From the NCBI GenBank assembly GCA_040902555.1, contig JBBDXC010000010.1, forward strand, positions 2,309-66,308: DNA of 64,000 nt, given 5' to 3'. The stretch's first letter is position 1, and each line of letters starts with the position of its first letter. Below the pieces are notes generated by a model. That model searched no databases and was not told where the DNA came from. It worked only from the letters and a program-made list of their open reading frames with translations. Position numbers and translations under genes: made by a program. Of the stretch, positions 27,123-57,036 are shown piece by piece. This DNA comes from Dehalococcoidia bacterium (GTDB lineage: Bacteria > Chloroflexota > Dehalococcoidia > WHTO01).

Positions 27123-28679
27123 TCAGGGAAGGGGCAGGTCGGGGCCGTCCAGGAGGCCCCCGCCGTCGTCCTCAGGGCCCTCGCCGGGGTCGGGTGTTGT
27201 GTCTGTAACACCTTCGACCTCGTCCACGACGTCCTCGATAGCACTCACCTGTTCGTCGACGGCGTCAGTCAGGTCGTCGGCGGCGTCCTCAACTTCCGAT
27301 ACCACCTCATCGGCGGTGTCGCTCACTTCGTCAGTGGAAACTTCCGAGGACAGGTCACCGTGCGGCAGCTCCCCAACGAGCTCGGCTGAGTCATCAGCGG
27401 CGTCTTCGGAGGTGACCGTCTCGTCGCTCGTGCCTGGTCCATCAGGCTCGACAGCGTCGTCCGGCGAGGGCGAAGCAACGGAGGTTTCGGGCGGCGGGGA
27501 GGCCGGCTCAGACCCCTGGGCCGCCGCTACGTCCTCGCCTGCCCCATGAAGGACCCGGCCGGGCACAGGCGAAATAGTCATTAGGTCGATGCTGACGCCT
27601 CGGCGGTCGACCCGTATTGTGTCGGCGCCCGCTGAGGATGACGTGGCAGCGACGTCGGCACGGTCGCTGGCGGCCTCCAGAGCCGTTTCGGCAGTAATGC
27701 CGCCGGCTGAGCTGTCGTTGGTGACAGCGGCCACGCCGACCACGGTGATTACAGCACCCGCGCCGACAACCGCGACCGCCGAACCGACGGCGGTGGCGCT
27801 GGTCGCAGCCACGGTGCCACCGGCCTTGGCCAGCCCGGCGGACAGCCGCTTGGCGAGGCCGGCGATAGTGGTCCCCAAAGAAAAACCAGGGAGGAGCAGG
27901 GGCGGCAGGAAGCCATGCCAACTGGCGCCCATCTTGTCCTGTACGACCCGGCAACGTGAACAGAGGTCGAGGTGGGTCAGGACGCGCACGCGCCGGCGGT
28001 CGCTGAGCGTCCCGGCGGATAGCCCCCTGAGGTGGGCCCGCATCTTGTAGCAGGCCAGGTTGTCGGAAGCCTGGACCCCGCTGAGCACGGAGTCGAAGTT
28101 GCGATGGAAGTTGGAGCGCGCGCGGTAGAGGAGCGTCTCGACAGCCGACAGGGACTGGCCAAGCCTTTCAGCGATCGCGCAGTAGCTCTTGCCCTCTATC
28201 CAGCGCAGGCGCAGGACTTCTCGCTGCCGGTCCGGTAGCTGCTTGAGGGCGGTGCTGGCGGCGCGGCGGCGCTCATTGAGCTCGGCGATGTCGTAGGGGT
28301 CATCGACGGCCTCGAGCTGGCTTTCGTCGGATTCGTCGAGGTAGACGGCGCGGCGGGTGGGCTCTCTCAGTACGCTGCGGCCGCAGTTGCGGGCTATCGT
28401 GGCAAGCCAGGAGAAGAAAGCTTCGGGGCGATCAAGGTCAGCGAGGCGCTGGTAGGCCTTGAGCCAGGCATCCTGAGCCGCGTCGTCCGCGATCTCAGGA
28501 GGGAGCGACATGCGGAGGCCGGCGAGCAACCTATCGTTGTAGCGCTCATAGAGGCGGCGGTAAGCCCCGTCATCGCCAGCTCTCACTGCTCTGACGAGCT
28601 CGGCCGCCGCCAGGAGTTCCGGTTCGGCCTCTTTTACCATTGGCCGGCCTCTCGCCGGGTTGTCAGCATCTGCACTCAA
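27123..28679 (-). CDS. ECF sigma factor fused to a ZAS-type anti-sigma domain, with TM segment and acidic C-terminal tail
   Basis: 518-aa single ORF. N-terminal ~190 aa has sigma-70 regions 2 and 4 (YRRLYERYNDRLL..., DRQREVLRLRWIEGKSYCAIAERLGQSLSAVETLLYRAR). Then HxxxCxxC zinc-finger motif (LTHLDLCSRC), a Gly/Ala/Val-rich hydrophobic stretch, and an Asp/Glu-rich tail. Confidence 0.8.
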   Translation of the reverse strand: MSADADNPARGRPMVKEAEPELLAAAELVRAVRAGDDGAYRRLYERYNDRLLAGLRMSLPPEIADDAAQDAWLKAYQRLADLDRPEAFFSWLATIARNCGRSVLREPTRRAVYLDESDESQLEAVDDPYDIAELNERRRAASTALKQLPDRQREVLRLRWIEGKSYCAIAERLGQSLSAVETLLYRARSNFHRNFDSVLSGVQASDNLACYKMRAHLRGLSAGTLSDRRRVRVLTHLDLCSRCRVVQDKMGASWHGFLPPLLLPGFSLGTTIAGLAKRLSAGLAKAGGTVAATSATAVGSAVAVVGAGAVITVVGVAAVTNDSSAGGITAETALEAASDRADVAATSSSAGADTIRVDRRGVSIDLMTISPVPGRVLHGAGEDVAAAQGSEPASPPPETSVASPSPDDAVEPDGPGTSDETVTSEDAADDSAELVGELPHGDLSSEVSTDEVSDTADEVVSEVEDAADDLTDAVDEQVSAIEDVVDEVEGVTDTTPDPGEGPEDDGGGLLDGPDLPLP

Positions 28680-29197: not shown

Positions 29198-29325
29198 CCT
29201 CTCAACCAGCGCAAGTTTTGGCGGGGATTGTGAGTCTCTAAGGAAAGACCACGCGCCGCGTTGCAAACTGTTCGCCTTTCGACTGGTATTGCAAATTGAA
29301 AGGCAGCACGAGAAGGAGTTCGAGG

Positions 29326-30990
29326 ATGGACCATCGAGCTAGAGAACTGTTTGGCGGGGAGGCTTCGACCTTTCCGCTGCGGCGATGGGCGCCGGTTGCC
29401 GTGGCCTTTGTCGCGCTGGTCGTCGGCGTCGTGGCTTCCGCGAGCAGCGTGTTTGGCCACGGTGGTCCTAGCGAAGATGGCTCCGACCCCCTGCGAAACA
29501 CGCCGTTGCCTTGCGAGGTGGTCAACACGCCGGGCCTCACGGCCCGCTCGGCCAACGGCATCGAGCACGTTGCCAACGTCTGCGGCTTCGTCGGCACCGA
29601 CATCGAGTTCCAGTCGCGAATGGCCAATGACGGCGTCCACGATTACGCGTTCGTCGGGACGATGGGCGCCGGAATGCGAATCTATGACATCACCGACCCG
29701 ACAACGCCGACATTCGCCGGGGGCTACGCGGACCCGGGCTGGGAGAATGACATCCAGGTCGAGGGCCACCTTGCGGTTGCTACCTTCGACGGACTCGTGG
29801 GCGAGGACTCCTCAGCTTCAACTTGCCTGAAGGAGCGTTACCCGGACGCAATGGGGCAGGGCGTCGATGTGTACGACCTGGAGTACGACGCGGCTACGGC
29901 GCTATTCAACGTGGTGCTGCTGACCTGCGTGGCGAACCCACCGGGTGGCGCACACAACGTCACATTGAACCCGCGTTCCCAGTGGATGGCCATCTCCAAC
30001 TGCTGTTCCGACTGGGCGATGGATGTCATCGACCTTCGCCGTATCGAGAACAACAGCTCCCGGACGAGTGGAACGGCGCCCGATGCCAAGCACATCTATC
30101 GGCTGATCGATGCCTCGCAGAGGGATTCGTCGACATGTCCGGCCGGGGCGACCTACAGGTGCGTCGTCATCAAGAAGCCGAACGGCACCAACGCCACCGG
30201 GCTCTGGCAGCCTCACGACGTGCACTTCTCGCGCAACGGCAAGACAGCTTACGTGGCGGCGATCAATTCGACGTTCATCATCGACGTCAGCCGGGTATTC
30301 GAGGGCGTAGTCAAAACGATTGCCATCATTCCTAACATCTCGGAGCCCGGTGGCTTCGCCAGCCGGCACAACATTGACATCTCGCACCAGGCGGACGTGA
30401 CCGCGGACGGCAAGATCCTGGTCATCTCGGATGAGCGGGGCGGCGGCCTGACCGACCAGAACTGCAATGTCGAGGCCGGCGACGAGCTGGTCGGAGGCCT
30501 GCACTTTTGGGCCCTCGCCGAGATCAACGGCGTTGCCGCCTCGCGCGGGGCGTCGCCCTCCAACCCCAAGAAGCTTGGCGTCTACGTCAATCCCAACCCG
30601 AACGACCTGGGGGCGGACCCGCTGCAGCCGGCGCTGGATCTTCTCCCGCGCTTCACCTCGGGCTGCACAGTGCACGTGTTCCGCATCGGGCGCAACGGCA
30701 CGGCTTCGCCAGACGCGGCGGAGATTGAATTCGGCGGTGTCTCCAGCCTGAGTCAGCGCCAGCTGACGACGGCCTGGTACGGCGCGGGCGTGTGGTGGAT
30801 CGACTTCTCGGGCCGGCCAGACCGCAAGGCCGGTGACACCATCCGGGAGAGCACGGAGACTACGTGGGGCAACACGCTCGGTTGGAATGTGATGCCTGGT
30901 GCAAGCACGTGGGCGGCCAAGGAGTACAAGGGCTACATCTTCGCCTCGGATATTACGCGCGGCTTCGACGTTTACCGCTTTGCGGACTGA
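29326..30990 (+). CDS. Secreted beta-propeller protein (LVIVD-repeat-like)
   Basis: ATG at 29326 preceded by GAAGGAG; N-terminal TM/signal segment (WAPVAVAFVALVVGVVASASS); repeated blade-like motifs (HDYAFVGTMGAGMRIYDITDP, GLWQPHDVHFSRNGKTAYVA, GYIFASDITRGFDVYRF). Confidence 0.7.
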   Translation: MDHRARELFGGEASTFPLRRWAPVAVAFVALVVGVVASASSVFGHGGPSEDGSDPLRNTPLPCEVVNTPGLTARSANGIEHVANVCGFVGTDIEFQSRMANDGVHDYAFVGTMGAGMRIYDITDPTTPTFAGGYADPGWENDIQVEGHLAVATFDGLVGEDSSASTCLKERYPDAMGQGVDVYDLEYDAATALFNVVLLTCVANPPGGAHNVTLNPRSQWMAISNCCSDWAMDVIDLRRIENNSSRTSGTAPDAKHIYRLIDASQRDSSTCPAGATYRCVVIKKPNGTNATGLWQPHDVHFSRNGKTAYVAAINSTFIIDVSRVFEGVVKTIAIIPNISEPGGFASRHNIDISHQADVTADGKILVISDERGGGLTDQNCNVEAGDELVGGLHFWALAEINGVAASRGASPSNPKKLGVYVNPNPNDLGADPLQPALDLLPRFTSGCTVHVFRIGRNGTASPDAAEIEFGGVSSLSQRQLTTAWYGAGVWWIDFSGRPDRKAGDTIRESTETTWGNTLGWNVMPGASTWAAKEYKGYIFASDITRGFDVYRFAD

Positions 30991-33024: not shown

Positions 33025-35346
33025 TTAATGGGGCAAAGGCGGGCTGACAGTAACACCAGCCGCAGCCAGACGCTCAAGATCCGCACCACGTCCGATCTCC
33101 TCGAGGATCTCGGCGGTGTGCTCGCCCAGCAGCGGCGCCACCCGCTGGATGACGCCGGGGGTTTTCGACAGGCGGAAGAGGAGGCCTGTTTGGGTGATTT
33201 GGCCGAGCTCAGCGTGGTGGCCGCTCGCGAGCAGGTCGTTGGCGGCAACCTGGGGGTCGTTGAAGAGGTCGAGGGGCGAGCGGAGGCGGGCACAGGGAAC
33301 CCCGACGCCGTCGAGAAGGCGTTCCGCATTCTTTGAGTCGAGGCCGGCGAGTACGGCGCTTACTGTGGTCGCATCGCTCCGCTCGGGACCGGAGAAACGG
33401 GCGGTAGCGAAGTCCTGTAACGCAAGGCCGAGCGCAGACCCTAAAGCCTCCCAATGGCTCGCTTCGCGGCAGGCTACGAAGAGCCAGTGATCGCCCGCGC
33501 AGCGATAGGCCCGGTAGCCCGGCCAGGGCCCTTTGGCTTCCGATGGTAAGGTGCGGGGTTCAGGAACTCCCTGGCCGAAGAGGAACTGGCCGGACTGGGC
33601 GGCCATCGTGGAGTTGGTCAGCGAGAGGCGGACGTGAGAGCCCTCACCGGTCTTCTCGCGCATCCAAATGGCCGCCAGCGCGCCGAAGGCATTAAGCATG
33701 CCGGCGGCGTGGTCGGACAGCGGCACAGCGAAGAAGACCGGGTCGCCGTCGCCGCCCTGGGCGGCCATTGCGCCCGACCGCGCCTGCAGCAGAGGATCGA
33801 AGGCCGGACGCTCGGCCAGCGGTCCCGTAAAGCCATTACCGACAACGCTGACGTAGACCAGGCGCGGATTGACCGCCTTGAGCGACTCATAGTCGACGCC
33901 GAGCCTCTGGGTGACGCCGGGGCGGTAATTCTCCACGAGCACGTCCGCGCCGCGGACGAGGTCAAGCAGTATCTCCTTGCCCTCAGGGCTGCGCAGGTCG
34001 AGGCCGATGCTGCGTTTACCACGGTTCCAGCCCAGGAAGCCGACAGCCATCTGGCGGAAAGGCTCGCCCTGCACCGGCTCAATCTTGATGACGTCGGCGC
34101 CCAGGTCGGCCAGCATCATTGGGCCAAGCGGGCCGGCGATGTAGAACGACAGATCAAGCACGCGCAGACCATCCAGTGGACTCTTGAGACCACGAGCAGC
34201 TTGCGCCCCTGGTCTGAGCTGCACCCCTGACCAGATTTCCTCGATCGCCCTCTCTCTTGGCACCGGCGCAGCCTTCTTGACGACCGGCTCGTCGGTACCG
34301 ACGCGGATCGGGACGCCCATCTGCACTGTTGGGCCGAGGACTGGGTCGTCGACCTCGACGCGCATGCCATTGGCGATCACCTGCGGGTCATCGATGAAGG
34401 CGCGCCGAGAGCCGACCTGGGCGGCCGGGACGTCCGATGCATCGAAGATGCTCAGCCACTCGCCACAGGGCTTCGAAGCGATGGCCTCGCCGATTACGGC
34501 CACCAGCGCCGCCCGGTAATCGGGAGCGACGACGCCCCAGGGGGCGTTTTGGAAGCGTTCATCGCCGACAAGCTCTGGTCGCTCGATGGCTATCGCCATC
34601 TTGTTGAAGAAGACATTGTTGCCGCAGGCCAGGAAAATCCACTCGCCGTCGGCGCACTGGTAGAGGCGATAGGCCGGGACGGCGCCAAGCGGGAAGCCAC
34701 GGGCCAGCGTGAGGCGCATGACAGCACCTTCGAGGGCGTTGACGAGGCTGCCGGTGGTCATCGCCAGGGCGCCGGCCAGCCAAGACACCTCAACGGTCTG
34801 CCCTCGACCGGTCGTTCGGCGTGCGAGTAGCGCGGCCATGGCCGCAATAGCACCCAGGAAGGCGGCGCCATAGCTCGCGAAGGGTAGCGTCAGGTAGACG
34901 GGCTCCAGGCTGGCGCTCGGCTGACCTTCGAGTAGGCCCGCGGCCGCGGCGGCCAGGGCATCATCCGCGAAGCGGCCGGCGTCGGGGCCGCGCGAACCCA
35001 AGGGCGGCAGCCAAAGGTGAACAAGGTGAGGATGTCTCGTGGCGATCTCGTCGGCATCCAGGCTGGCGGGCGCGGCACGTGGGAGGTAGCTGGTCACGAG
35101 CACGTCGGCGCATTGCAGCAGTCGTTCGAGCCGTTGCCGATCCTCACTACTTTCGAAGTCGACAAGGCAACCATCCTTGCTGCGGTTCCAGACGTGGAAG
35201 CCGGGGAGGCGCCGGCCGGGATCGCCCGACGGCGCGAGCTCGACCTTGACGACATCGGCGCCCTGCTCCGCGAGCAGCATCGTCGCGTAGGGGCCGGCGA
35301 TCTCCTCGCTGAGGTCGACGACGCGCAGGCCTTCCAGAGGCAGCAT
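33025..35346 (-). CDS. CoA-transferase family III (CaiB/BaiF) protein with two tandem complete transferase domains
   Basis: Two copies of the family N-terminal signature (LEGLRVVDLSEEIAGPYATMLLAEQGADVVKVE and LDGLRVLDLSFYIAGPLGPMMLADLGADVIKIE); start taken at ATG 35346 (ORF track 35385). Confidence 0.85.
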   Translation of the reverse strand: MLPLEGLRVVDLSEEIAGPYATMLLAEQGADVVKVELAPSGDPGRRLPGFHVWNRSKDGCLVDFESSEDRQRLERLLQCADVLVTSYLPRAAPASLDADEIATRHPHLVHLWLPPLGSRGPDAGRFADDALAAAAAGLLEGQPSASLEPVYLTLPFASYGAAFLGAIAAMAALLARRTTGRGQTVEVSWLAGALAMTTGSLVNALEGAVMRLTLARGFPLGAVPAYRLYQCADGEWIFLACGNNVFFNKMAIAIERPELVGDERFQNAPWGVVAPDYRAALVAVIGEAIASKPCGEWLSIFDASDVPAAQVGSRRAFIDDPQVIANGMRVEVDDPVLGPTVQMGVPIRVGTDEPVVKKAAPVPRERAIEEIWSGVQLRPGAQAARGLKSPLDGLRVLDLSFYIAGPLGPMMLADLGADVIKIEPVQGEPFRQMAVGFLGWNRGKRSIGLDLRSPEGKEILLDLVRGADVLVENYRPGVTQRLGVDYESLKAVNPRLVYVSVVGNGFTGPLAERPAFDPLLQARSGAMAAQGGDGDPVFFAVPLSDHAAGMLNAFGALAAIWMREKTGEGSHVRLSLTNSTMAAQSGQFLFGQGVPEPRTLPSEAKGPWPGYRAYRCAGDHWLFVACREASHWEALGSALGLALQDFATARFSGPERSDATTVSAVLAGLDSKNAERLLDGVGVPCARLRSPLDLFNDPQVAANDLLASGHHAELGQITQTGLLFRLSKTPGVIQRVAPLLGEHTAEILEEIGRGADLERLAAAGVTVSPPLPH

Positions 35347-35406
35347 CAGCGCAGCACCTCTCCCCCTGGCACCGTCTCCGTCCACCGAGAAGGGGACATG
35401 GGCCTG

Positions 35407-36508: not shown

Positions 36509-36591
36509 GAGTTGTTTGATGGCCGCAGGGTTCATCTCAGATTCGCCAGCCAGTTGTTGGTTTGTTTGAGTTGTTTGACTTGTTTGATCCT
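36509..36591 (-). repeat. AC-rich ~80-nt conserved element, copy 2 (upstream of Fe-ADH-like gene)
   Basis: Reverse complement reads GATCAAACAAGTCAAACAACTCAAACAAACCAACAACTGGCTGGCGAATCTGAGATGAA...TCAAACAACTC; about 51 of 53 core nt identical to copy 1. Confidence 0.7.
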
Positions 36592-36622
36592 CCCCCCTTG
36601 CCAAGGGGAGGGGAAAGGAGGG
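36592..36622. repeat. REP-like palindromic repeat (copy B)
   Basis: CCCCCCTTGCCAAGGGGAGGGG hairpin immediately abutting AC-rich copy 2. Confidence 0.5.
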
Positions 36623-36890
36623 GCCGCCGCCGTCGGATCCGGAGGACCGATGTGGAACCAGCGAACCCCGCCCCGCCATCTCACCCGTGGCCCCCTACGC
36701 CGAGGCTCATTCTTCGAATTCCGTAAAGAGAGGGGGTAGAGTGAGCGGTCGAAGATCAGCGTGAAACTGGGCGGGCGTGGATAGTTGCACCGGGACTCCC
36801 CAAGGGTGGTTGAGAGAGCTTGAGAGACGAGAGCGACAGGTTTGGTCGTTCTGGTGGCTGCTATTCGCGATCTCTCATCGCGAGCAAAGC

Positions 36891-36937
36891 CGGGACACCT
36901 CTCCCCTAGCCCCTCTCCCGGCCGGGAGAGGGGGACA
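36891..36937. repeat. REP-like bipartite palindromic repeat (copy C)
   Basis: ACCTCTCCCCTAGCCCCTCTCCCGGCCGGGAGAGGGGGA; same family as copies D-K. Confidence 0.6.
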
Positions 36938-37064
36938 TCGGCGGGGGCCGGCCGGGTTTCACTCAAAGTCGCGTGTACGTCTTGGATGGGACGACGAGGC
37001 GGTGTCTTTCTGGGCGGCGCACTGCATCGTCCGCCGGACATCCGCCCCGACAATGCGCGGGACG

Positions 37065-37248
37065 CTATTTGCTGTCGTCCTCGATGTTCGCCCTGACCAT
37101 GGCTATAAGCTCCGGGGTGGGGCTCCAGGTCGTGGGTGGCGGCGTGCTCGGCCACAAGCTTCATGAGCTCTTCTTCGCTTTCCGCCCGAACGACGTGCCC
37201 ACAACCGGAAGCCGGATTGACCTTCCCGCAATCAACAACCATTGCCAT
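37065..37248 (-). pseudogene. DUF1059-type small metal-binding protein, frameshifted at a C4 run (or assembly indel)
   Basis: N-terminus MAMVVDCGKVNPASGCGHVVRAESEEELMKLVAEHAATHD matches small DUF1059 proteins. After the GGGG/CCCC run near 37095-37103 the +1 frame continues ...PTPELIAMVRANIEDDSK and stops at 37065 (60 aa if one C is removed). The 238-aa in-frame ORF in the track has noncoding-like codon usage and runs through repeats. Confidence 0.6.
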
Positions 37249-37363
37249 CTGATCCGCTCCTTTCGATTCCGATACCAGAAGAATAGGGCGCGCCTGGCTC
37301 GGTCAGAAGCAAGCGGTGGATAGCGGCGAGGGGTAAGCTCAGGAGAAAATTGAAGGAAGCGGA

Positions 37364-38056
37364 ATGTACCTCAAGCTCCTCCTCGCGCTTGGGCTGATAG
37401 CCCTCGGTCTATTCGAGGCCACCGCCGACAGCCAGGCCGGCCCTCCTCTGTGCGCCGGCAAGGAAGCGACGATCTTTGGTCAGTCGGGCACGATCAACGG
37501 CACGACAGGCAACGACGTAATCGTCGGCTCGGCCGCGAACGACGTGATCCTCGGAAGGGGTGGCAACGACACGATCTGCGCCAGCGCTGGCAGCGACGGC
37601 CTTAATGGGGGCGCCGGAAACGACAAACTCTACGGACAGGCGGGGGACGATGACCTCCTCGGCGGGGCCGGGACCGATGTCCTGTCCGGCGGTGGCGGTC
37701 CTGACCTCTGCAACGGCGGGGGCGGCACGGAGAAGACCATCGGCTGCGAAGTCCTGACGAACCTCACCATAGTTGCCACCGACTTCAACTTTGACATGAA
37801 CCAGTTCAACGTCCGTCCCAACACGACCGTCAGGGTTGCCTTGAACAACAAAACCAACGGCACGCCGCACAACGTAGCGTTCTACACGGACCCGGCGCAT
37901 ACCGACCTTGTGGCCAACACAGCCCTTGTGCCGGGTCCCGCCGTGCGAGAGATAAGCTTCCTGGCTCCAGAGGAGGGAGTGACCTACTTCTACAAGTGCC
38001 AGCAGCATGCAGAGATGAATGGCCAAATGACGACGAACAACGTCTTCCCGCCCTGA
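37364..38056 (+). CDS. Secreted protein with RTX-type glycine-rich repeats and a C-terminal type-1 copper (cupredoxin) domain, paralog 1
   Basis: Signal peptide (LLLALGLIALGLFEATA); repeats GNDVIVGSAANDVILGRGGNDTI...GGAGNDKLYGQAGDDDLLGGAGTDVLSGGGGPD; copper-ligand pattern H...C-x2-H-x5-M (PHNVAF ... YFYKCQQHAEMNGQM); GAAGGAAG SD before ATG. Confidence 0.75.
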   Translation: MYLKLLLALGLIALGLFEATADSQAGPPLCAGKEATIFGQSGTINGTTGNDVIVGSAANDVILGRGGNDTICASAGSDGLNGGAGNDKLYGQAGDDDLLGGAGTDVLSGGGGPDLCNGGGGTEKTIGCEVLTNLTIVATDFNFDMNQFNVRPNTTVRVALNNKTNGTPHNVAFYTDPAHTDLVANTALVPGPAVREISFLAPEEGVTYFYKCQQHAEMNGQMTTNNVFPP

Positions 38057-38084
38057 TCAATCTCCGTTTCCAGAAAGGACCCTT

Positions 38085-38756
38085 GTGAGAGCAACCATCC
38101 TCCTCCTTATGGCCGTGGCCGCGGCGGTCTTTAGCCTGTCAGGCAGCTCAGCCGGACCGTATTACGGGCAGACCTGCGACGGGGATCCGGTTACCAACAA
38201 CAACACGCCCACGGCGGGCGATGATGTGCTGGTCGGCACTTCTGGTGCGGACAACATCAACGGCGGCGGCGGCCGCGACAAGATCTGCGGTGGGCCGGGC
38301 GCCGACCTCCTTTCCGGGGGCGCCGGGGCAGACGAGCTCTTCGGCGAGGGCGGCAACGACCGCCTCTTCGGCGGCGGCGCCGTTGACACCCTGAGCGGCG
38401 GGCCCGGGACGAAGGACCGCTGTGATGGCGGGGCCGGGTTGGAAACATCGCTCAACTGCGAGATCTTCACCAACCTGACTGTGAAGACGGCCCCTGGCTT
38501 GGAGTTCGCACCCACTACCTTCACGGTCCCGCGGTCCAAGCAGATCAACGTGACACTGAACAACCTCGGCGGGACCCACAACATCGACTTCTACCAGGGC
38601 ACGGACTCATCTGGGGTCTTTGTGGCCGGCACGGATCTCGCCAACGGCCCGAACATCGACGACGTAACCTTCACGACGCCTTCCGAGCCGGGTTCGTACT
38701 ACTACGAGTGCGCGCTCCACGGCTCAGGTATGAGCGGCACCTGGGTGGTGCAGTAA
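38085..38756 (+). CDS. Secreted protein with RTX-type glycine-rich repeats and a C-terminal type-1 copper (cupredoxin) domain, paralog 2
   Basis: GTG at 38085 with AGGA 5 nt upstream; signal peptide; repeats GTSGADNINGGGGRDKICGGPGADLLSGGAGADELFGEGGNDRLFGGGAVDTLSGGPG; copper ligands THNIDF ... YYYECALHGSGMSG. Confidence 0.75.
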   Translation: MRATILLLMAVAAAVFSLSGSSAGPYYGQTCDGDPVTNNNTPTAGDDVLVGTSGADNINGGGGRDKICGGPGADLLSGGAGADELFGEGGNDRLFGGGAVDTLSGGPGTKDRCDGGAGLETSLNCEIFTNLTVKTAPGLEFAPTTFTVPRSKQINVTLNNLGGTHNIDFYQGTDSSGVFVAGTDLANGPNIDDVTFTTPSEPGSYYYECALHGSGMSGTWVVQ

Positions 38757-38790
38757 CCCGCGCGTCAAATCCTGTCGCGGCGACACTCTA

Positions 38791-38830
38791 GCGTCAGAGA
38801 GGAAGAGCCCTCTCTGACGCTTTTCTTTAT
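38791..38830 (+). terminator. Rho-independent terminator after cupredoxin paralog 2
   Basis: GCGTCAGAGAGG / CCTCTCTGACGC stem with short loop, followed by TTTTCTTTAT. Confidence 0.75.
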
Positions 38831-38961: not shown

Positions 38962-39879
38962 ATGAAACCGGGCCTGCCCGCGCCGCCCGACTACCTGACG
39001 CTGGATCAGGCGCTGGCCTCCGGCTTTCTGAAGATCTCTGAGGTCTCAGCCGGCGGTAGCGTGCCGAATTTAAGGGCCGAGAACCTCGGGGCGCGTTCCG
39101 TGCTCCTCCTAGACGGCGAAGAGCTGGTCGGCGCCAAGCAGAACCGCGTCCTCAACCTAACGCTGCTTCTCGCGGCGAACAGCACCACCACGATCCCGGT
39201 CTCCTGCGTGGAGGCAGGACGCTGGAGCTCGCGGAGCGCCGAGTTCGCCAGCGCGCAGCGCATGCACTTCGCGGCCGGCCGGGCTAAGCGCCAGGAACAC
39301 GTCACGGAGTCGCTCAATCTGCGCGGCGACCGGCGCTCGCGGCAGGGTGAGGTCTGGGAGGAGATCGCCGCCAAGTCGAGTGAGCTATCAGCGCCCTCGG
39401 CGACCGGGGCCATGGCGGACATCTACCAGAAGCACCAGCACACGGTGGACGAGTACACGTCGGCCTTTTCGGTCTCATCCGAGCAGGTGGGGGCGGTCTT
39501 CGCCGTCGGAGGCGACGTGCTGGGCTGCGAAGTCTTCGAGCATCCAGATGTTCTCCAACGCGTCTTCCCCAAGCTGCTCGGTAGCTACGCCCTCGAGGCC
39601 GTGGGCAAGGCGGCCGGTGGTGAACCCGCGGAGGGCGCGGCGCGAATCTTTCTCGAGAGCGTTGCCGCCGCTAACTACCGCGAGTTTCCGGCCCTCGGCC
39701 TGGGAAGAGATATGCGCATATCCGGCGACTCAATCACTGGCGGCGGACTGCTGCTGGACGAGAGGTTCGTCCACATGGCCGCCTTCCGCCAGGCTGGCTC
39801 GACGGCACGTCGCACCGCCGGGGCGACCGGCATGGCGCGCCCCAGCCAGCGCGCGCGGAGGCCAGCCTCCGATAGGTGA
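38962..39879 (+). CDS. Hypothetical protein (conserved-looking N-terminal domain, Arg-rich C-terminus)
   Basis: 305-aa ORF with GC-rich third positions; no motif I can assign to a named family. Confidence 0.6.
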   Translation: MKPGLPAPPDYLTLDQALASGFLKISEVSAGGSVPNLRAENLGARSVLLLDGEELVGAKQNRVLNLTLLLAANSTTTIPVSCVEAGRWSSRSAEFASAQRMHFAAGRAKRQEHVTESLNLRGDRRSRQGEVWEEIAAKSSELSAPSATGAMADIYQKHQHTVDEYTSAFSVSSEQVGAVFAVGGDVLGCEVFEHPDVLQRVFPKLLGSYALEAVGKAAGGEPAEGAARIFLESVAAANYREFPALGLGRDMRISGDSITGGGLLLDERFVHMAAFRQAGSTARRTAGATGMARPSQRARRPASDR

Positions 39880-43117: not shown

Positions 43118-44005
43118 TCAGGGAGACGCCTTGCCAAGCACCTCGTGAAGCTGGTGGACGCCGTCCTTGCCCTTGAGCTCGACTCCGAACTGCCCGCCGA
43201 AGGCAAAGCTGTCGTCGAGCAGGGTCTTTACATCATCGGTGACGAGGAACCGGGTGCCGGTCTCCTTCACGGCGTCCTGGACGCGAGAGGCCGTGTTCAC
43301 AACGTCCCCGATAACGTTGAGCGAGGACTTGTTGTAGTAGCCGACCTGACCGATGACGGCGTGGCCCCAGGCGATACCGATTCCAATGCGCAACGGGAAC
43401 TCGAACTGTTCCTGCGAGAAGGCGTCGAAGGCCTCGGCCGTGGCCAGCATCTGCAAGGCGCAGTTGACGGCGTGCTCCGCCGCGTGGCGCCTGTCGAGAT
43501 CCTCGAAGAGGCAGGCCATGCCGTCGCCGAGGAAAGCGATGACCTGCCCGTGGTTGAGCTCCACCACTGTGCCCATGCGGTCGAAGTAGCGATTCAGGAG
43601 GTGGAGGACATCGAAGGCAAGGCGCTGCTGGGCAAAGTTTGTGAAGCCACGGATGTCGCTAAAGAGGATCGCGACCTCGCGTTCCCGAGCCAGTCCCTCA
43701 GGGCGGAGCTCAGCGCCCTTCTGGGCCAGTAGCCGGCGGACGGTTACGTCTCCGTGAGGCACCAGCTGGCAGGCGAGCCGGACATCTTCGCCGAAGCGGC
43801 TGATCTTGAGGACCTGGGCCTCGGCCTCGGCGCGAGGCGGGCAGTTCTCCTGGCCGGCCAGGACCTCGACGCGGCAGGTGGTACAGCGGGCTTGACCACC
43901 GCAGGCGTGCATATGCTGGAGCCCATGCTGGATGGAGGCGTCGAGGACCGACATGCCCTGTGGCACATCGATCACCAGCCCGTCCCCGAAGTCGATGAGT
44001 GGCAT
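43118..44005 (-). CDS. 2Fe-2S ferredoxin domain fused to class III adenylate/guanylate cyclase catalytic domain
   Basis: N-terminal Cys cluster (HACGGQARCTTCRV ... LACQL) typical of plant-type ferredoxins; C-terminal cyclase motifs (VAILFSDIRGFTNF, NVIGDVVNTASR). Confidence 0.8.
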   Translation of the reverse strand: MPLIDFGDGLVIDVPQGMSVLDASIQHGLQHMHACGGQARCTTCRVEVLAGQENCPPRAEAEAQVLKISRFGEDVRLACQLVPHGDVTVRRLLAQKGAELRPEGLAREREVAILFSDIRGFTNFAQQRLAFDVLHLLNRYFDRMGTVVELNHGQVIAFLGDGMACLFEDLDRRHAAEHAVNCALQMLATAEAFDAFSQEQFEFPLRIGIGIAWGHAVIGQVGYYNKSSLNVIGDVVNTASRVQDAVKETGTRFLVTDDVKTLLDDSFAFGGQFGVELKGKDGVHQLHEVLGKASP

Positions 44006-48727: not shown

Positions 48728-49753
48728 GTGCGCGTGGTGGTTACCGGGGCCAGCGGGTTCATCGGTTCGCAAATCTGCCGCCGGCTCGAGGCGGCGGGTC
48801 ACGAGGCCGTCGCCTTCGTGCGCAAGTCGAGCAACCGGCAGCGGTTGCAGGGCTCCGACCTCGAGGTGATGACCGGTGACATCCGCAACCAGGATTCCCT
48901 GCGAACCGCTTTCCACCACGCCGAGGCGGTGGTCCACTGCGCCGCGCTGGCCGACCCCTATGCCAATCCGTGGGAGTCGCGGGCAGTCAACTTCATAGCT
49001 GCGTTCAACGTCTGTCGCGCGGCCACGGACAGCGGCGTGAGCCAGCTCGTCCAGATGAGCACGGCGGCCGTCTATGCGCGGGATCACCCTCGAGGCGTGC
49101 CCCTGCGCGAGGAGGCCCGGTTGGTCAAAGAGCCGCCCGTCTACGACACCTACAGCATCAACAAGGCAGCAGCCGAGGGCTACGTCCAGGACTTTGGTCG
49201 GGCCGGCAGGCTGGCGACAACAATCCTTCGCCCGGGCGTCGTCTACGGTCCGGGCGACCGTGTCAGCGCCGCGCTGGTCTCGCTGATGCATCGTGGGAAG
49301 TTGATTATTCCAGCCGGCCGGGATCGGCGACTTCCACTGATCCACGTCGACGACCTTGGCTCGGCGGTGTTGGCCGCCCTCTCGAACTCGCCGGCGGGCG
49401 CGCGGAGGTACAACCTCGATGGGCCGAGGCCGGTAACGTTTGCCGCGTTTGCCGACGCTCTAGCCCGCAACACGACCCGTTCGAGTGGCAGAGTCCTTAC
49501 AGAGAGAGTGGCGCACCGATTGGCGTGGGGCTTTGAGAAGTGGTGGCACATCCAAAAGCTCGAGGGACGGCCACCACTGAACCGCTACGCGGTCGACCTG
49601 ATCACGGCCGATATGATCCTCGACACAATCAGGGGCATAGAAGAGCTGAAGTGGGAACCGGCTGTGAGCCTCGACGAGGGCGCGCAGCTAACCAGCGAGT
49701 GGTTGGGCAGCGAGCCGGCCGACCCCGCGGCCGGTTTTCCGCCCCTGGCCTGA
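48728..49753 (+). CDS. NAD-dependent epimerase/dehydratase family protein
   Basis: Rossmann motif VVVTGASGFIGS and a YxxxK-like motif (YSINK). Confidence 0.85.
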   Translation: MRVVVTGASGFIGSQICRRLEAAGHEAVAFVRKSSNRQRLQGSDLEVMTGDIRNQDSLRTAFHHAEAVVHCAALADPYANPWESRAVNFIAAFNVCRAATDSGVSQLVQMSTAAVYARDHPRGVPLREEARLVKEPPVYDTYSINKAAAEGYVQDFGRAGRLATTILRPGVVYGPGDRVSAALVSLMHRGKLIIPAGRDRRLPLIHVDDLGSAVLAALSNSPAGARRYNLDGPRPVTFAAFADALARNTTRSSGRVLTERVAHRLAWGFEKWWHIQKLEGRPPLNRYAVDLITADMILDTIRGIEELKWEPAVSLDEGAQLTSEWLGSEPADPAAGFPPLA

Positions 49754-49790
49754 TCTTGATCGGCCGGGCGCTCTGGTATCTTCCCCTCTG

Positions 49791-50630
49791 ATGACGGTTC
49801 GCGTCCTTACCGACAGCACGGCTTACTTCGCCCCTGGCGAAGCGGCGGCGCGTGGCGTAACGATCGTCCCGCTTTACGTGATTTTTGGCGAAACCACCTA
49901 CAAGGACGGGGTGGAGCTTTCCATCGACGAGTTCTTCGCCAAACTGGTCTCCAGCAAGGATCTGCCAAAGACCTCCCAGCCCTCGGCCGGCGACTTCCAC
50001 GACGCCTACCGCAGTCTCGGCCAGCCGGGGGTCCAGGTAGCGGCGATCCACCTGTCCTCGCATCTGTCGGGGACGCACAACACCTCGCGCATGGCGGCCG
50101 AGCAGATGGCGGGGCATCCGCCGGTCGAGGTCGTCGACTCGCTGACCACCTCTGTGGGCCAGGCTTTCGTCGTTCGCGCCGCCGCTGAGGCTGCCGCCCG
50201 CGGCGCCGGCCTCAGCGACGTGACAAGCGTGGCCCGCGAAGTCGCCGCCAAGGTCCACACCTACCTGGCCATCGACACGCTGCAGTATCTCCAGCGCGGC
50301 GGAAGGCTCGGGCGGGCGCAGGCTTTCTTTGGCTCCGCCCTCGACGTCAAGCCGATCATCGGCCTCGACGACGAGGGCAAGATCGCCCAGTTCGCGAAGG
50401 TCCGCACGCGCCGCAAGGCGCTGGACACCCTGCTCGAGCTGGCCGGTTCCCGGGGAACCCCGCGGAGGCTGGCGGTCGTGGATGCCACCACGCCGGCGGA
50501 CGCTCAGAGCGTCAAGATCCGCCTCGAGCGCGCCTTCCCCAACACCCCGGTGGAGGTGGGCCGTGCCGGCCCGGTAATTGGCGTACACGCCGGGCCGGGG
50601 ATGATGGGGATCCAGGTCGAGGAGGTCTAG
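49791..50630 (+). CDS. DegV family fatty-acid-binding protein
   Basis: 279-aa ORF with conserved DegV N-terminus (VRVLTDSTAYFAP...TSQPS) and family-typical length. Confidence 0.9.
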   Translation: MTVRVLTDSTAYFAPGEAAARGVTIVPLYVIFGETTYKDGVELSIDEFFAKLVSSKDLPKTSQPSAGDFHDAYRSLGQPGVQVAAIHLSSHLSGTHNTSRMAAEQMAGHPPVEVVDSLTTSVGQAFVVRAAAEAAARGAGLSDVTSVAREVAAKVHTYLAIDTLQYLQRGGRLGRAQAFFGSALDVKPIIGLDDEGKIAQFAKVRTRRKALDTLLELAGSRGTPRRLAVVDATTPADAQSVKIRLERAFPNTPVEVGRAGPVIGVHAGPGMMGIQVEEV

Positions 50631-50639
50631 ACGGCAGGC

Positions 50640-53096
50640 TTGACTTCGCCCGCGGTGCGCAACGAGGCAGAGGAGCGCCTGCTCAGGGTCCTCAAGCAGG
50701 AAGAGAGGCGGGGCTTCGACGACCGAGCCGTGATGGGCGGCCTCGACCGGCTGCTCAAGAACTTCGTGGGCCGGCTTGGGCCGCAGTCGGCCTTGCTGCG
50801 AGCCATCCTCGATCTCCCACCGATGGGCTACGCCGCCCTCACCCCGCCCCAGCGCCGACATTGGGCCGAGCGAGTCCAGAATCCGCCCGCGGCCGCGAAG
50901 GAGGTTGCCGCCGGCCGCAAACAGCCTCGGCCGAGACCGGCCACAGGTGTGCCGGCGGCCATCCACGCCGTGGGCGGGTTGAGCACGCCAATCTCCAGGT
51001 TGAGCATTCGCGAGACCACGGCCCAGAAGATAGCCAAGATAAAGCGCGGGGTCGGTCCGCTGGCTTCGGTCTACGACCTGCTCACGCATTACCCTTTCCG
51101 CCACATCGACTATGGCCGCCTCGCGAAGGTCGCCACGCTGCAACCCGGCGATAGGGCCACTTTGGCCCGGGTCGCGTCCGTGGACGCGCCGTTTCGTGGC
51201 AACCGCGGCCGCCCAGTGAGGGCGGTGTTGACCGACGACTACGGCCGGATCGAGGCCGTCTGGTTTAACCAATCGTGGGTTGCCGCGCAGCTCAAGCGGG
51301 ACCAGTGGTTCGTCTTCGCCGGCAAGGTCGGCTACTTTAACGGCCGCCTGCAGTTCGAGAACCCCGAGTACGAGCCGGCCAACGAAGAAACCCGCGAGTA
51401 CATCGACCGCGGGCGCCTCGTGCCGGTCTATCCGTCCACAGCAGGGCTGCCGCAACGGACCCTGCGGCGCGCAGTAGGCCTCGCCCTCAAGGGGTACCTC
51501 CAACTCGTTCCCGAGCTCCTTCCGGCAGAGATCCGCCACGAGGCAGCACTGCTGGAGCAGCAGGAGGCTATCCAGTCTTATCACTATCCACAGTCGCTCG
51601 ATGAGTACACCGAGGCCGAGAAGCGGCTTGGTTTCGACGAGTTCTTCATCAAGCAGATGGTGGTCCTGGCGCGACGGCGCGCCTGGCAGTCGGGAGCGCC
51701 GGCGCCCAACCTGTCGCTGGCGCCCGAAATCCTCGAGCGCTTCACGACATCTCTGCCCTTCAGCCTGACCGGCGCCCAGGAGCGCGCGCTGGCGGCGATC
51801 CTGCGTGACCTGCGCGGGCCGGCGCCGATGAGCCGGTTGCTGCAGGGAGACGTCGGCAGCGGCAAGACCGTCGTGGCGACGGCGGCGATTGTCGCGGCGC
51901 TGGCCAACAGTCATCAGGCGGTGGTTATGGCGCCGACCGAGATCCTGGCCGAGCAGCACTACCAGACCATCTCCCGCCTGCTCGGCGCCCCAGAGACCGC
52001 TGGCGCGTTGACCACGGCCGGCAACGATTACCTCGACCGCCCGGTCACGATTGCCCATCTCACGGGCGGGCAGAAGGGTTCGACCAAGAAGGAGGTGCGT
52101 GCCGCGATCGCCGCCGGCGAAGTGGATGTTGCCATCGGCACCCATGCCCTGGTCGAGGAGAGCGTGGACTTCGCCCGCCTCGGGCTCGCGGTTGTCGACG
52201 AGCAGCACCGCTTTGGGGTGGTCCAACGCGACCGCTTGAAGAAGAAGGGCGAAAGCCCCCATCTGCTGGTGATGACGGCCACACCGATACCGCGGACGCT
52301 CTCGCTGACCGTCTATGGCGACCTGGACAACTCGATCATCGACGAGCTGCCGCCGGGCCGGCAGCGCATTGAGACGCGCTACGTCGCCCCGTACGACCGG
52401 CCCTGGGCCTACACGTTTCTGCGCGAGCAGGTGCAGGCGGGGCGGCAGGCCTTCGTCATCTGCCCGCTGGTGGAGGAGAGCGAGACGATAGAGGCGAAGG
52501 CGGCTGTGCAGGAATACCAGCGACTCTCCACGGAGATCTTTCCCGACCTGCGGCTCGCGCTGCTGCACGGGCGGATGAAACCGGCGGAGAAGGACCGCGT
52601 CATGACCGAATTTCGCGCCGCCGACGCCGACATTCTCGTATCGACATCCGTGATCGAGGTCGGCATCGACATCCCCAACGCCACCGTGATGCTGATCGAA
52701 GGCGCCGACCGCTTCGGCCTCGCCCAGCTCCACCAGTTCCGCGGGCGCGTCGGCCGTGGCAGCGAGCAGAGCTTCTGCCTGCTGCTCTCGGACGACCCCT
52801 CGGACGAAGCGAAGGAGCGGCTTGACGTGGTGGTCTCGACCAACGACGGCTTCAAGCTGGCCGAGGAGGACCTGCGCATCCGCGGGGCGGGCGAGTACTA
52901 CGGGGTGCGCCAGAGCGGCCTCGCCGACTTCCGTGTGGCTCAGCTGAGCGACGAGGGTCTGCTGGCTACCGCGCGCCAGATCGCCGACCGGGTGCTGACC
53001 GAGAACCCGCAGCTGGAAGGCGAGGAGTACGCCGAGCTCAAGCATCAGGTCACCGACTTCGCGGCCAGCCGCAACATCATACTGGCCTTCCACTAA
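50640..53096 (+). CDS. recG: ATP-dependent DNA helicase RecG
   Basis: 818-aa ORF; Walker A (GDVGSGKT), DEQH box (VVDEQHRFGV), helicase motif (LVMTATPIPRTL). The 1212-aa antisense ORF 49629..53267 is an artefact. Confidence 0.9.
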   Translation: MTSPAVRNEAEERLLRVLKQEERRGFDDRAVMGGLDRLLKNFVGRLGPQSALLRAILDLPPMGYAALTPPQRRHWAERVQNPPAAAKEVAAGRKQPRPRPATGVPAAIHAVGGLSTPISRLSIRETTAQKIAKIKRGVGPLASVYDLLTHYPFRHIDYGRLAKVATLQPGDRATLARVASVDAPFRGNRGRPVRAVLTDDYGRIEAVWFNQSWVAAQLKRDQWFVFAGKVGYFNGRLQFENPEYEPANEETREYIDRGRLVPVYPSTAGLPQRTLRRAVGLALKGYLQLVPELLPAEIRHEAALLEQQEAIQSYHYPQSLDEYTEAEKRLGFDEFFIKQMVVLARRRAWQSGAPAPNLSLAPEILERFTTSLPFSLTGAQERALAAILRDLRGPAPMSRLLQGDVGSGKTVVATAAIVAALANSHQAVVMAPTEILAEQHYQTISRLLGAPETAGALTTAGNDYLDRPVTIAHLTGGQKGSTKKEVRAAIAAGEVDVAIGTHALVEESVDFARLGLAVVDEQHRFGVVQRDRLKKKGESPHLLVMTATPIPRTLSLTVYGDLDNSIIDELPPGRQRIETRYVAPYDRPWAYTFLREQVQAGRQAFVICPLVEESETIEAKAAVQEYQRLSTEIFPDLRLALLHGRMKPAEKDRVMTEFRAADADILVSTSVIEVGIDIPNATVMLIEGADRFGLAQLHQFRGRVGRGSEQSFCLLLSDDPSDEAKERLDVVVSTNDGFKLAEEDLRIRGAGEYYGVRQSGLADFRVAQLSDEGLLATARQIADRVLTENPQLEGEEYAELKHQVTDFAASRNIILAFH

Positions 53097-53129
53097 GCTT
53101 CGCCCCGCCGCCCCGCCGCCCCGCCCCGA

Positions 53130-53169
53130 CCTCACCCCTAACCCCTCTCCGCAAGCAGAGAGGGGGAAC
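53130..53169. repeat. REP-like bipartite palindromic repeat (copy D)
   Basis: CCTCACCCCTAACCCCTCTCCGCAAGCAGAGAGGGGGAAC, preceded by a (GCCCCGCC)x3 tract. Confidence 0.65.
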
Positions 53170-53260
53170 GGCGAAGGGAGCGCCAGGCCTCTGTATGTTG
53201 CGAATTGACCCGGAGGTGTGCCGCCGCCTGAGATCGAGTACGCCCCGCCACACCACCCCC

Positions 53261-53302
53261 ATCTCACCCCCTAACCCCTCTCCGCACCCGGAGAGGGGAG
53301 TT
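53261..53302. repeat. REP-like bipartite palindromic repeat (copy E)
   Basis: ATCTCACCCCCTAACCCCTCTCCGCACCCGGAGAGGGGAGTT. Confidence 0.65.
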
Positions 53303-54258: not shown

Positions 54259-55140
54259 TCAATCAAAAGCTGGGGCCTCCGACCCGAGGCGAATGCCGGC
54301 GTCGGAAGACTGGCCGGCCAGCCGGGCGCGGACCAGGGTGTAGGCGATGACGACGAGGAAGACTGAGGCCTGGAGCAGGACAATCGCCGCGCCTGATGCG
54401 ACATCCCACCAGTAGCTGATGTAGATGCCCATGAAGCCGGTCACGGCGCCCAGGACCGTTGAGATGACCATCATGCGGGAGAAGCTGTTCGTCAGCAGGC
54501 GGCCCGTGATTGGGGGCACGACCAGCGTGGCCGCGATCAGCGTGACGCCGAGGATACGCATCGTGGCGACGACGACGGCCGCCAGAATCAGGGCGAAGGC
54601 GGTGTCAACCCAGCCGCTGCGCACGCCGTAGGCCGGCGCAACCTCGGCGTCGAAGGTCATGAACAGCAGCTGCTTGTAGAGGACGGCGATCAGCAGGGCT
54701 ACCCCGACGGCGACGCCGATCAGGATGTAGATGTCGGTCGAGGTCACCCCCAGGACGTTGCCGAAGAGGGCGGCCTCGAAGTTGCGGCTGAAGCGGCTGG
54801 CCCGGCTGATGATCGCCACGCCCAGCGCGAAGCTGGCCGTCGTGACGACGCCGATGGCCACGTCGGCGCTGATCTGGCGCTTGCGCGTGGCTAGGTTGAT
54901 CAGCAGCGCCGAGGCGAAGCCCCAGAGACCGGCCCCGATGTAGAAGTTGATCGAGGCGACAAAGCTGACCACCGCCCCGCCGAAGATGGCGTGCGAGAGA
55001 CCGTGGCCGATGTAGCTCATGCGCCTGAGGACGACGTAGACGCCGACGAGGCCACAAAGCCCCCCGGCCATCGTCGCCGCGAGGAGCGCGTTCTTGAAGA
55101 ACTCGTACTGCAGAGGCTCGCTGAAGGAGATGTCAGGCAT
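54259..55140 (-). CDS. Metal (Zn/Mn-type) ABC transporter permease
   Basis: 293-aa multi-TM protein typical of ZnuB/MntB-type permeases; overlaps the ATPase gene stop. Confidence 0.9.
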   Translation of the reverse strand: MPDISFSEPLQYEFFKNALLAATMAGGLCGLVGVYVVLRRMSYIGHGLSHAIFGGAVVSFVASINFYIGAGLWGFASALLINLATRKRQISADVAIGVVTTASFALGVAIISRASRFSRNFEAALFGNVLGVTSTDIYILIGVAVGVALLIAVLYKQLLFMTFDAEVAPAYGVRSGWVDTAFALILAAVVVATMRILGVTLIAATLVVPPITGRLLTNSFSRMMVISTVLGAVTGFMGIYISYWWDVASGAAIVLLQASVFLVVIAYTLVRARLAGQSSDAGIRLGSEAPAFD

Positions 55141-55972
55141 CGTGGCCCTCGTGGGGGCTCTCGCCGACGAAGACCATGCCCTGGTGGTGGAAGACCACCA
55201 TTGCCGCCCCGTAGGTGGCGCTCAGGACCTCTGGGGTCATGATCTCGGCGGGTGGGCCCTCAGCGATGACGCGCTGGCTTAGGCAGACGACCCAGGGCAG
55301 GTGGGCGGCGGCGGAGTTCAGGTCGTGCGTCGTCATCACGATCGTGATGCCTTCATGATTGAGGTCGTGGAGCAGGTGGAGGACTTCGTCGCGGGTCTTG
55401 ATGTCGATGCCGCTGGTGGGCTCGTCGAGCAGCAGCAGGCGTGGCTTGCCGACGAGAGCCCGCGCCAGGAAGACCCGCTGCTGCTGGCCGCCCGATAGCT
55501 CGCGGATGTGGCGGCCGGCAAGGTCGGCGATCCCCAAGCGCTCCATCATGTGTCTCGCCTCACCGCGGTCTTCCCTCGACGCCCAGGGGACGAAGGGCCG
55601 GCTGGACCAGCGGCCCATCAACACGACCTCTTCAACCGTTACCGGGAAGTTCCAGTCGACGGTTTCGAGCTGCGGCACGTAGCCGACGAGCGGGCTGGCG
55701 GACGCCACGGCTCGTGTCAGTGAGCCAGACGAGGGCTTGACGATGCCGAGGATGAGCCGCAACAGGGTCGTCTTGCCCGAGCCGCTGGGACCCAGGATGC
55801 CCATGAACTGGCCATCGTGGATGGTCAGATTGAGGTTGCGGACGGCGAATATCTTCCCGCCGTAGCCGGCGCTGACGTTGTCGAAGCGGACGAGGGGCTC
55901 GCCTTCCTGCCACGCTTCGACGGCGGCCGGGTGAAGGAGGCCGCTGAGCGGGGCGGGGACGGTGAGCGTCAT
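55133..55972 (-). CDS. Metal ABC transporter ATP-binding protein
   Basis: Walker A (GPSGSGKTT), ABC signature (LSGGQQQRV), Walker B (LLLLDEP). Confidence 0.9.
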   Translation of the reverse strand: MTLTVPAPLSGLLHPAAVEAWQEGEPLVRFDNVSAGYGGKIFAVRNLNLTIHDGQFMGILGPSGSGKTTLLRLILGIVKPSSGSLTRAVASASPLVGYVPQLETVDWNFPVTVEEVVLMGRWSSRPFVPWASREDRGEARHMMERLGIADLAGRHIRELSGGQQQRVFLARALVGKPRLLLLDEPTSGIDIKTRDEVLHLLHDLNHEGITIVMTTHDLNSAAAHLPWVVCLSQRVIAEGPPAEIMTPEVLSATYGAAMVVFHHQGMVFVGESPHEGHDA

Positions 55973-56994: not shown

Positions 56995-57036
56995 GAAGGG
57001 CCGTCGAGTTAGTGCGCGCCTGGCCCCTCCCCGCCC

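Follow-up and report, generated by a model that had tools for sequence, protein, structure and literature searches.

Two adjacent genes in a 64,000-nucleotide stretch of a Dehalococcoidia contig (JBBDXC010000010.1; the whole stretch is referred to as the window) encode small paralogous proteins, here named ORF1 and ORF2 (ORF, open reading frame), in which a predicted signal peptide is followed by an RTX-type beta-roll and then by a cupredoxin with a complete type-1 copper site. On the combined basis of profile hidden Markov models (HMMs), AlphaFold2 models and fold comparison, we regard this architecture as near certain. The fusion of a beta-roll with a cupredoxin is real, extremely rare and, as far as we have searched, undescribed, while its parts and its probable function are ordinary. 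We favour, with moderate confidence, the reading that ORF1 and ORF2 are Sec-exported electron carriers of the type-1 copper kind, with a disulfide-capped, calcium-folded beta-roll in place of a membrane tether.

Domain architecture of ORF1 and ORF2

The Pfam HemolysinCabind profile matches the beta-roll half of ORF1 with 73 bits (E 1.7e-20) and that of ORF2 with 54.5 bits (E 1.1e-14), and RTX-type matches were also obtained with the NCBIfam models. Both proteins contain the tandem GGxGxDxUx nonapeptides that form calcium-binding beta-rolls, which makes calcium binding a prediction for each, and the nine-residue register runs uninterrupted over residues 47-127 of ORF1 and 43-123 of ORF2. A first-pass annotation of this DNA had counted 4-6 GGxGxD repeats. 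Their RTX-type character stands, but the count was too low, as the register gives eight or nine nonapeptides (Table 1). Four cysteines that are not copper ligands are common to the two paralogues (C30, C72, C116 and C128 in ORF1; C31, C68, C113 and C125 in ORF2): one lies before repeat 1, one ends repeat 3, and two bracket the linker D-x-C-x11-C-E, which sits between the beta-roll and the cupredoxin. The repeats lie N-terminal to the functional (cupredoxin) domain.

The beta-roll half is a reusable cassette. Its Sec-type form begins with an N-cap (C-x-G-x2-3-[APV]-T), continues with repeats that carry a cysteine in an early repeat, and ends in D-x-C-x6-14-C-E. This cassette was found in 14 of 228 other RTX matches, where it either ends soon after the linker or runs into unrelated C-terminal domains; examples from outside the window are proteins P0293, P0296, P0012, P0309, P0301, P0034 and P0378. 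To our knowledge, no description of the cassette as a unit exists.

In the C-terminal half, Pfam Copper-bind (PF00127, gathering cut-off 21.2) scores 27.6 bits in ORF2 and 21.2 bits in ORF1, and NCBIfam gives weak plastocyanin, halocyanin and NirK-domain matches. Both proteins have the full set of type-1 ligands, with the loop C212-x2-H215-x2-M218 in ORF1 and C209-x2-H212-x3-M216 in ORF2, and the first ligand histidine aligns with the ‘HN’ motif of auracyanin A. The pattern proposed in the first-pass annotation, His...Cys-x2-His-x4/5-Met, was therefore right in its His/Cys/His/Met set and wrong in its last spacing, which is x2 in ORF1 and x3 in ORF2. The four ligand positions are invariant across ORF1, ORF2 and their orthologue P0173 (see below), and conservation at these positions is 90% or higher among 144 relatives. 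With the ligands, the HMM matches and, in the predicted models, the Greek-key beta-sandwich fold all in place, ORF1 and ORF2 are members of the cupredoxin superfamily.

AlphaFold2 models of the two proteins, built from an alignment of 30-32 sequences, have a mean predicted local distance difference test score (pLDDT) of 85.6 for ORF1 and 85.3 for ORF2, with predicted template-modelling scores (pTM) of 0.67 and 0.61, respectively. Both models show a short strand every nine residues across the repeats, followed by a beta-sandwich with pLDDT >90. When the ORF2 model was compared with known structures using Foldseek, three auracyanin structures ranked first, followed by plastocyanins and amicyanin; the best PDB match by sequence profile is likewise auracyanin A (E 9.3e-10). 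The outcomes that the first-pass annotation had named as fatal to its proposal, namely a C-terminal domain without a cupredoxin fold or copper site, or repeats that do not form a beta-roll, thus did not materialize in the HMM searches, the models or the fold comparison.

Export is predicted to proceed through the Sec route. Inspection of the N-termini (MYLKLLLALGLIALGLFEATA followed by DS in ORF1, and MRATILLLMAVAAAVFSLSGSSA followed by GP in ORF2) agrees with the earlier assignment of a signal peptide to each protein: both look to be of the cleavable Sec type, with a charged n-region, a hydrophobic core and a cleavage motif of A-T-A before D (ORF1) or S-S-A before G (ORF2). The lack of a lipobox led us to reject a lipoprotein reading. 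The C-termini, ...MSGTWVVQ in ORF2 and ...MNGQMTTNNVFPP in ORF1, both lie inside the cupredoxin ligand loop or last strand, and neither protein has a C-terminal type I secretion signal or room for one after the cupredoxin. Among the ORFs scanned across the window, there are no genes for an ABC exporter, a membrane fusion protein or an outer membrane factor (TolC), the only ABC system being a ZnuABC-type importer (54259-57276). The N-terminal signal, the absence of a C-terminal one and the lack of exporter genes among the nearby ORFs scanned led us to reject the reading as type I secretion substrates. Hence, although ORF1 and ORF2 carry RTX-type repeats, they do not count as RTX proteins where secretion is concerned.

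Table 1. Features of the ORF1-ORF2 locus, with positions numbered from the first nucleotide of the window
Feature	Position	Strand	Details and basis
ORF1, beta-roll-cupredoxin paralogue 1	37364-38056	+	ATG start, 230 aa; NCBI MEX2237027.1, ‘hypothetical protein WEB00_05785’
ORF1 predicted Sec signal peptide	37364-37426	+	residues 1-21 (...FEATA, then DSQ), without lipobox; inspection; low pLDDT at residues 1-30
ORF1 beta-roll	37475-37744	+	N-cap, 8 canonical and 1 degenerate nonapeptides, C30, C72, C116; 9-residue register; model strands every 9 residues, 42-126
ORF1 cupredoxin	37745-38053	+	residues 128-230; ligands H169, C212, H215, M218; alignments; PF00127 over 134-223; model pLDDT >90
ORF2, beta-roll-cupredoxin paralogue 2	38085-38756	+	GTG start, 223 aa; NCBI MEX2237028.1, ‘plastocyanin/azurin family copper-binding protein’
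ORF2 predicted Sec signal peptide	38085-38153	+	residues 1-23 (...SGSSA, then GPYY), without lipobox; inspection; model helix at residues 3-15
ORF2 beta-roll	38175-38456	+	N-cap with C31, 7 canonical and 2 degenerate nonapeptides, C68, C113; 9-residue register; model strands every 9 residues, 48-123
ORF2 cupredoxin	38457-38753	+	residues 125-223; ligands H165, C209, H212, M216; PF00127 over 133-222, 27.6 bits
Shine-Dalgarno-like motif AAGGAAG	37353-37359	+	4 nt 5′ of the ORF1 ATG; sequence reading
Shine-Dalgarno-like motif AAAGGA	38074-38079	+	5 nt 5′ of the ORF2 GTG; sequence reading
Intrinsic terminator after ORF1-ORF2	38790-38821	+	13-bp stem, 8 GC pairs, T-run
DUF1059 gene, divergent from ORF1	37065-37248	-	Pfam DUF1059; phmmer E 1.5e-18; gene order on contig L001 (see text)

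Relatives and rarity of the fusion

An exhaustive HMMER profile search with the linker and cupredoxin of both paralogues as the query returned 1,643 matches from 1.84 billion cluster representatives. Among the best 150 of these 1,643, RTX repeats occur in ORF1, ORF2 and P0173 only. P0173 (220 aa) has the same layout residue for residue, keeps all cysteines and ligands, and passes the Pfam profile PF13473 (29.4 vs. a threshold of 27). As the first-pass annotation had proposed, ORF1 and ORF2 are tandem paralogues, with 43% identity across 173 aa (E 6e-40). Since P0173 is 41-45% identical to each of them, the duplication dates back roughly as far as the separation from the organism of P0173. The P0173 gene is found on a 2.3-kb Logan contig (L001) as a single copy, preceded by a divergent DUF1059 gene and then followed by a tRNA-Ala gene. 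It should be noted that this tRNA-Ala(CGC), which lies directly after the P0173 gene (L001 2197-2272, - strand), was reported by the gene caller as a 36-aa ‘gene’ that is merely the translated tRNA.

In the nearest relatives of the cupredoxin, an N-terminal transmembrane segment or a lipobox is usually followed by two to five cupredoxins in tandem, with two or three copies in most. In a Pfam scan of the 144 nearest relatives among these matches, Cupredoxin_1 was present in all, Copper-bind in 135, and HemolysinCabind in a single protein, P0173. Their fusions comprise three to COX2, two to a pyrroloquinoline quinone (PQQ) dehydrogenase and one to cytochrome c. These fusions and membrane anchors place the cupredoxin among the respiratory electron carriers of bacteria that need to tether them. 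In one of the three COX2 fusions, the metagenomic protein P0165, the C-terminal domain of cytochrome oxidase subunit II is fused directly to a cupredoxin of the ORF1/ORF2 family.

Searches with full-length ORF1 and ORF2 were dominated by RTX-only matches. A profile search with ORF1, ORF2 and P0173 at full length added a single further protein that matches both Pfam families. This protein, P0276 (334 aa), has about 16 repeats, a cysteine-containing linker like that of ORF1 and ORF2, and a PF00127 match of 33 bits. Its cupredoxin is of an actinobacterial amicyanin-like type, and BLAST similarity to ORF1 and ORF2 is limited to the linker. Because its cupredoxin is unlike theirs, P0276 is an independent and equally isolated fusion. 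RTX repeats were found in the same ORF in none of 80 GTDB loci with a P0276-type cupredoxin.

All four fusion proteins (ORF1, ORF2, P0173 and P0276) are singleton clusters among ~15 billion sequences. Pattern scans for the linker plus cupredoxin in 185,579 GTDB species genomes and in JGI metagenomes gave pattern matches and no confirmed relative. We found no paper on a beta-roll-cupredoxin protein in the literature; together with the single orthologue and the single independent fusion present in very large protein collections, this upholds the earlier view of the fusion as an undescribed architecture.

Possible function and the alternatives

The best-supported reading of ORF1 and ORF2 is that of a calcium-dependent electron-transfer protein, either secreted or held at the surface, and we infer that the two-gene operon would yield two paralogous blue copper carriers exported by the Sec route. 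After export and cleavage of the signal peptide, the eight or nine GGxGxD nonapeptides would bind extracellular Ca2+ and fold into a short beta-roll. The conserved cysteine pairs would probably lock its ends, one pair joining the N-cap to repeat 3 and the other closing the C-x11-C-E linker. The C-terminal cupredoxin is expected to bind one copper through His/Cys/His/Met, to cycle between Cu(I) and Cu(II), and to shuttle single electrons; the carrier could thereby link a quinol-oxidising complex with a terminal oxidase or reductase. RTX units promote calcium-dependent folding or assembly outside the cell (PMC8916777). In ORF1 and ORF2, the beta-roll would most likely nucleate calcium-dependent folding and act as a rigid spacer or docking module, holding the carrier at the surface of a cell that has no outer membrane. 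As the relatives have membrane anchors at the same N-terminal position, the beta-roll is best seen as a replacement module. Of the two proposed roles, that of an electron carrier is probable and that of a tether a conjecture. Auracyanins, the paired blue copper carriers of Chloroflexota, comprise one soluble and one membrane-tethered form (PMC3150298), and by analogy with auracyanins A and B, the differing ligand loops of ORF1 and ORF2 suggest a difference in potential or partner.

Several findings weigh against this reading. The beta-roll-cupredoxin family (ORF1, ORF2 and P0173) is known from three singleton sequences only, and ORF1, labelled hypothetical by NCBI, does no more than equal the PF00127 cut-off. 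The interdomain linker is weak in the models (block-mean pLDDT 66-74 in ORF2 and 67 in ORF1; pTM 0.61-0.67), and consequently no fixed interdomain geometry can be claimed. There is no lipobox, transmembrane segment, sortase signal or C-terminal sorting signal in ORF1 or ORF2; surface retention is a conjecture for this reason. Finally, the ORFs scanned across the window include no oxidase, alternative complex III (ACIII), bc complex, nitrite reductase or copper-handling gene, and thus lend no contextual support to any redox partner. The context speaks neither for nor against any particular one.

Other roles can be proposed for the same architecture. In copper handling, the cupredoxin would bind or buffer extracytoplasmic copper like CopI-, CupA- or EfeO-type proteins, and the beta-roll would hold the protein in the envelope. 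We consider this distinctly unlikely: the ligands are the classic electron-transfer set of His/Cys/His/Met at canonical positions, invariant in the three members of the family, and fusions to COX2, PQQ dehydrogenases and cytochrome c occur among the closest relatives in sequence. Moreover, the ORFs scanned in the window did not include cop, cus, csoR or cueR genes, and DUF1059 is unlinked to the other cupredoxin loci. Alternatively, the beta-roll could display the copper centre on an S-layer-like surface, where the protein would react with external substrates or minerals, for instance by oxidising Fe(II) or Mn(II) or through extracellular electron transfer. This is unlikely given that the gene context offers no support, with no multihaem cytochromes or multicopper oxidases nearby, and that rusticyanin and AcoP are weaker fold matches than auracyanin, azurin and plastocyanin.

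A third possibility is a structural or adhesive surface protein with a vestigial copper site, the cupredoxin being a mere beta-sandwich module acquired through incidental domain shuffling. The joining of the beta-roll cassette to many unrelated C-terminal domains is in keeping with this, as are the singleton status of all the fusion proteins and the one-off, independent nature of P0276, given the 0 of 80 related genome loci with RTX repeats in the same ORF. However, the four ligands are kept in three sequences that are only 41-45% identical, and a duplication that dates back to the separation from the orthologue's host indicates long-term maintenance, which makes this possibility very unlikely. 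If the fusion were such an incidental shuffle, it would be an annotation curiosity, with one paralogue labelled ‘hypothetical’. A broader proposal, which we judge improbable as well, is that the disulfide-capped, Sec-exported cassette is a general calcium-dependent surface-docking module of bacteria that have no outer membrane (Chloroflexota and Actinomycetota), and that its fusion to a blue copper centre here produces a calcium-dependent redox carrier held by the cell wall or S-layer. Were it true, it would represent a new way to retain a ‘periplasmic’ carrier outside a single membrane, or to gate it by Ca2+, with extracellular electron transfer as one possible use.

Bacteria without an outer membrane must keep small extracytoplasmic electron carriers from diffusing off, and the known means of doing so are lipid anchors, transmembrane tails and fusion to a partner enzyme. 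If, under the favoured electron-carrier reading, the beta-roll does retain or position the cupredoxin, it would be a fourth solution, one that depends on calcium. It would also exemplify RTX-type repeats acting in a Sec-exported protein outside type I secretion. With a mature protein of ~200 residues, ORF1 and ORF2 are a possible natural template for calcium-switchable redox proteins; engineered beta-rolls are in use as calcium-triggered switches and hydrogel building blocks (PMC5618222, PMC6473919).

Genomic neighbourhood and comparison with known systems

The first-pass annotation had listed the two ORFs, a ribosome-binding site for each and a strong terminator at the end of the pair, and all of these were located (Table 1). 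The genes are separated by 28 nt. Their own Shine-Dalgarno-like motifs and the single strong terminator make the pair look like a self-contained two-gene operon. The NCBI entries of both proteins derive from a Dehalococcoidia metagenome-assembled genome. Horizontal acquisition is not indicated, as the GC content of ORF1 (62%) and ORF2 (65%) is close to that of the window (65.6%). Given the strong domain matches of the + strand ORFs, we regard antisense ORFs over the pair (e.g. 37409-38026, - strand, 205 aa) as spurious and of the kind common in high-GC DNA.

The upstream neighbours, all on the - strand, encode a double CoA-transferase III, an Fe-ADH-like protein and the DUF1059 protein; downstream lie genes for an ARPP-1 domain protein, an FAA hydrolase and dTDP-sugar enzymes. 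A DUF1059 gene is also next to P0173, and is thus the same divergent neighbour in the window and on L001. Whether it is part of the ORF1-ORF2 unit is uncertain. A functional link is not supported, the association being seen only in these two related loci and absent from the 80 loci with the other cupredoxin type. For DUF1059 itself we found no solved structure and no informative literature, and the divergent promoter region yielded neither conserved operators nor inverted repeats. The gene was listed as a 238-aa ORF (36532-37248, - strand), and its homologue on L001 encodes 60 aa. A 1-nt frameshift near 37111-37117, due to one surplus base in a CCCC/GG run and reflecting either an assembly error or a pseudogene, adds a long spurious tail; the DUF1059 reading continues in another frame as ...PELIAMVRANIEDDSK, with a stop codon ending at 37065.

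The remaining genes of the window encode housekeeping functions and assorted metabolism, e.g. the glycine cleavage P protein, amidases, a Mur ligase, RecG, DegV/FakA, the ZnuABC-type importer and RimM. Further observations concern several other ORFs. The first gene past the terminator (38962-39879, + strand) has a full-length ARPP-1 domain (PF20208, E 3.6e-93) and is not found beside P0173 on L001. The double CoA-transferase (33025-35385, - strand; 786 aa) contains two complete tandem family III domains (PF02515, two stretches, E 1.1e-177). The product of the ORF at 43118-44005 (- strand, 295 aa) starts with a 2Fe-2S ferredoxin domain (Fer2, E 6.7e-10), also contains the catalytic domain of an adenylate/guanylate cyclase (E 2.5e-23), and may be a redox-sensing nucleotide cyclase. 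An ECF-type sigma factor (27123-28679, - strand; regions 2 and 4 within residues 26-195) carries a C-terminal extension of ~320 residues with no Pfam match, which may be a fused anti-sigma or sensor region. Of the large ORFs, the one at 29296-30990 (+ strand, 564 aa) encodes an uncharacterised protein with only a weak LVIVD-repeat match, and that at 1621-3582 (- strand, 653 aa) is uncharacterised and has no Pfam match. The 1,212-aa ORF at 49629-53267 (- strand), also with no Pfam match, is a spurious frame of a length typical of high-GC DNA and lies antisense to the real genes for DegV (49791-50630, + strand) and RecG (50640-53096, + strand).

Among known systems, auracyanins A and B of Chloroflexus and Roseiflexus are those closest in fold. 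Auracyanin A has the ligand loop C-x4-H-x3-M (‘CTVPGHYPLM’), in contrast to C-x2-H-x2/3-M in ORF1 and ORF2, and because of this difference in loop length the two proteins are not auracyanins in the strict sense. In addition, auracyanins are either soluble or tethered by an N-terminal tail, whereas the N-terminal region of ORF1 and ORF2 is a predicted calcium-binding beta-roll, and the auracyanin genes are not in tandem as those of ORF1 and ORF2 are. Auracyanins are also partners of ACIII, for which no gene was seen among the ORFs scanned in the window. The closest relatives in sequence, among the best 150 of the 1,643 matches, are membrane-anchored multi-cupredoxins and COX2-cupredoxin fusions (PF13473/PF00127; P0122, P0127 and P0165). 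Their cupredoxin is homologous to that of ORF1 and ORF2, with profile E-values down to 1e-40 and with the ‘PHN..FY’ and C-x2-H-x2/3-M motifs in common; however, they have transmembrane or lipoprotein anchors, or a fusion to oxidase subunit II, where ORF1 and ORF2 have the beta-roll.

On the beta-roll side, ORF1 and ORF2 differ from type I RTX proteins (CyaA, HlyA, serralysins and family I.3 lipases) in their N-terminal repeats, Sec signal, cysteine-capped roll and Chloroflexota host. They share an identical N-cap, cysteine positions and linker with the Sec-type beta-roll cassette proteins (P0293, P0296, P0301 and P0276), whose C-terminal domains are unrelated to theirs, P0276 alone also ending in a cupredoxin. 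A precedent for the layout of an N-terminal calcium-binding beta-roll followed by a functional C-terminal domain is CylK, in which the roll is atypical, has one consensus motif and forms part of the active site, and the partner is a beta-propeller rather than a redox domain (PMC8916777). Taken together, the closest architectural precedents of ORF1 and ORF2 are the Sec-type beta-roll cassette proteins and, more loosely, CylK.

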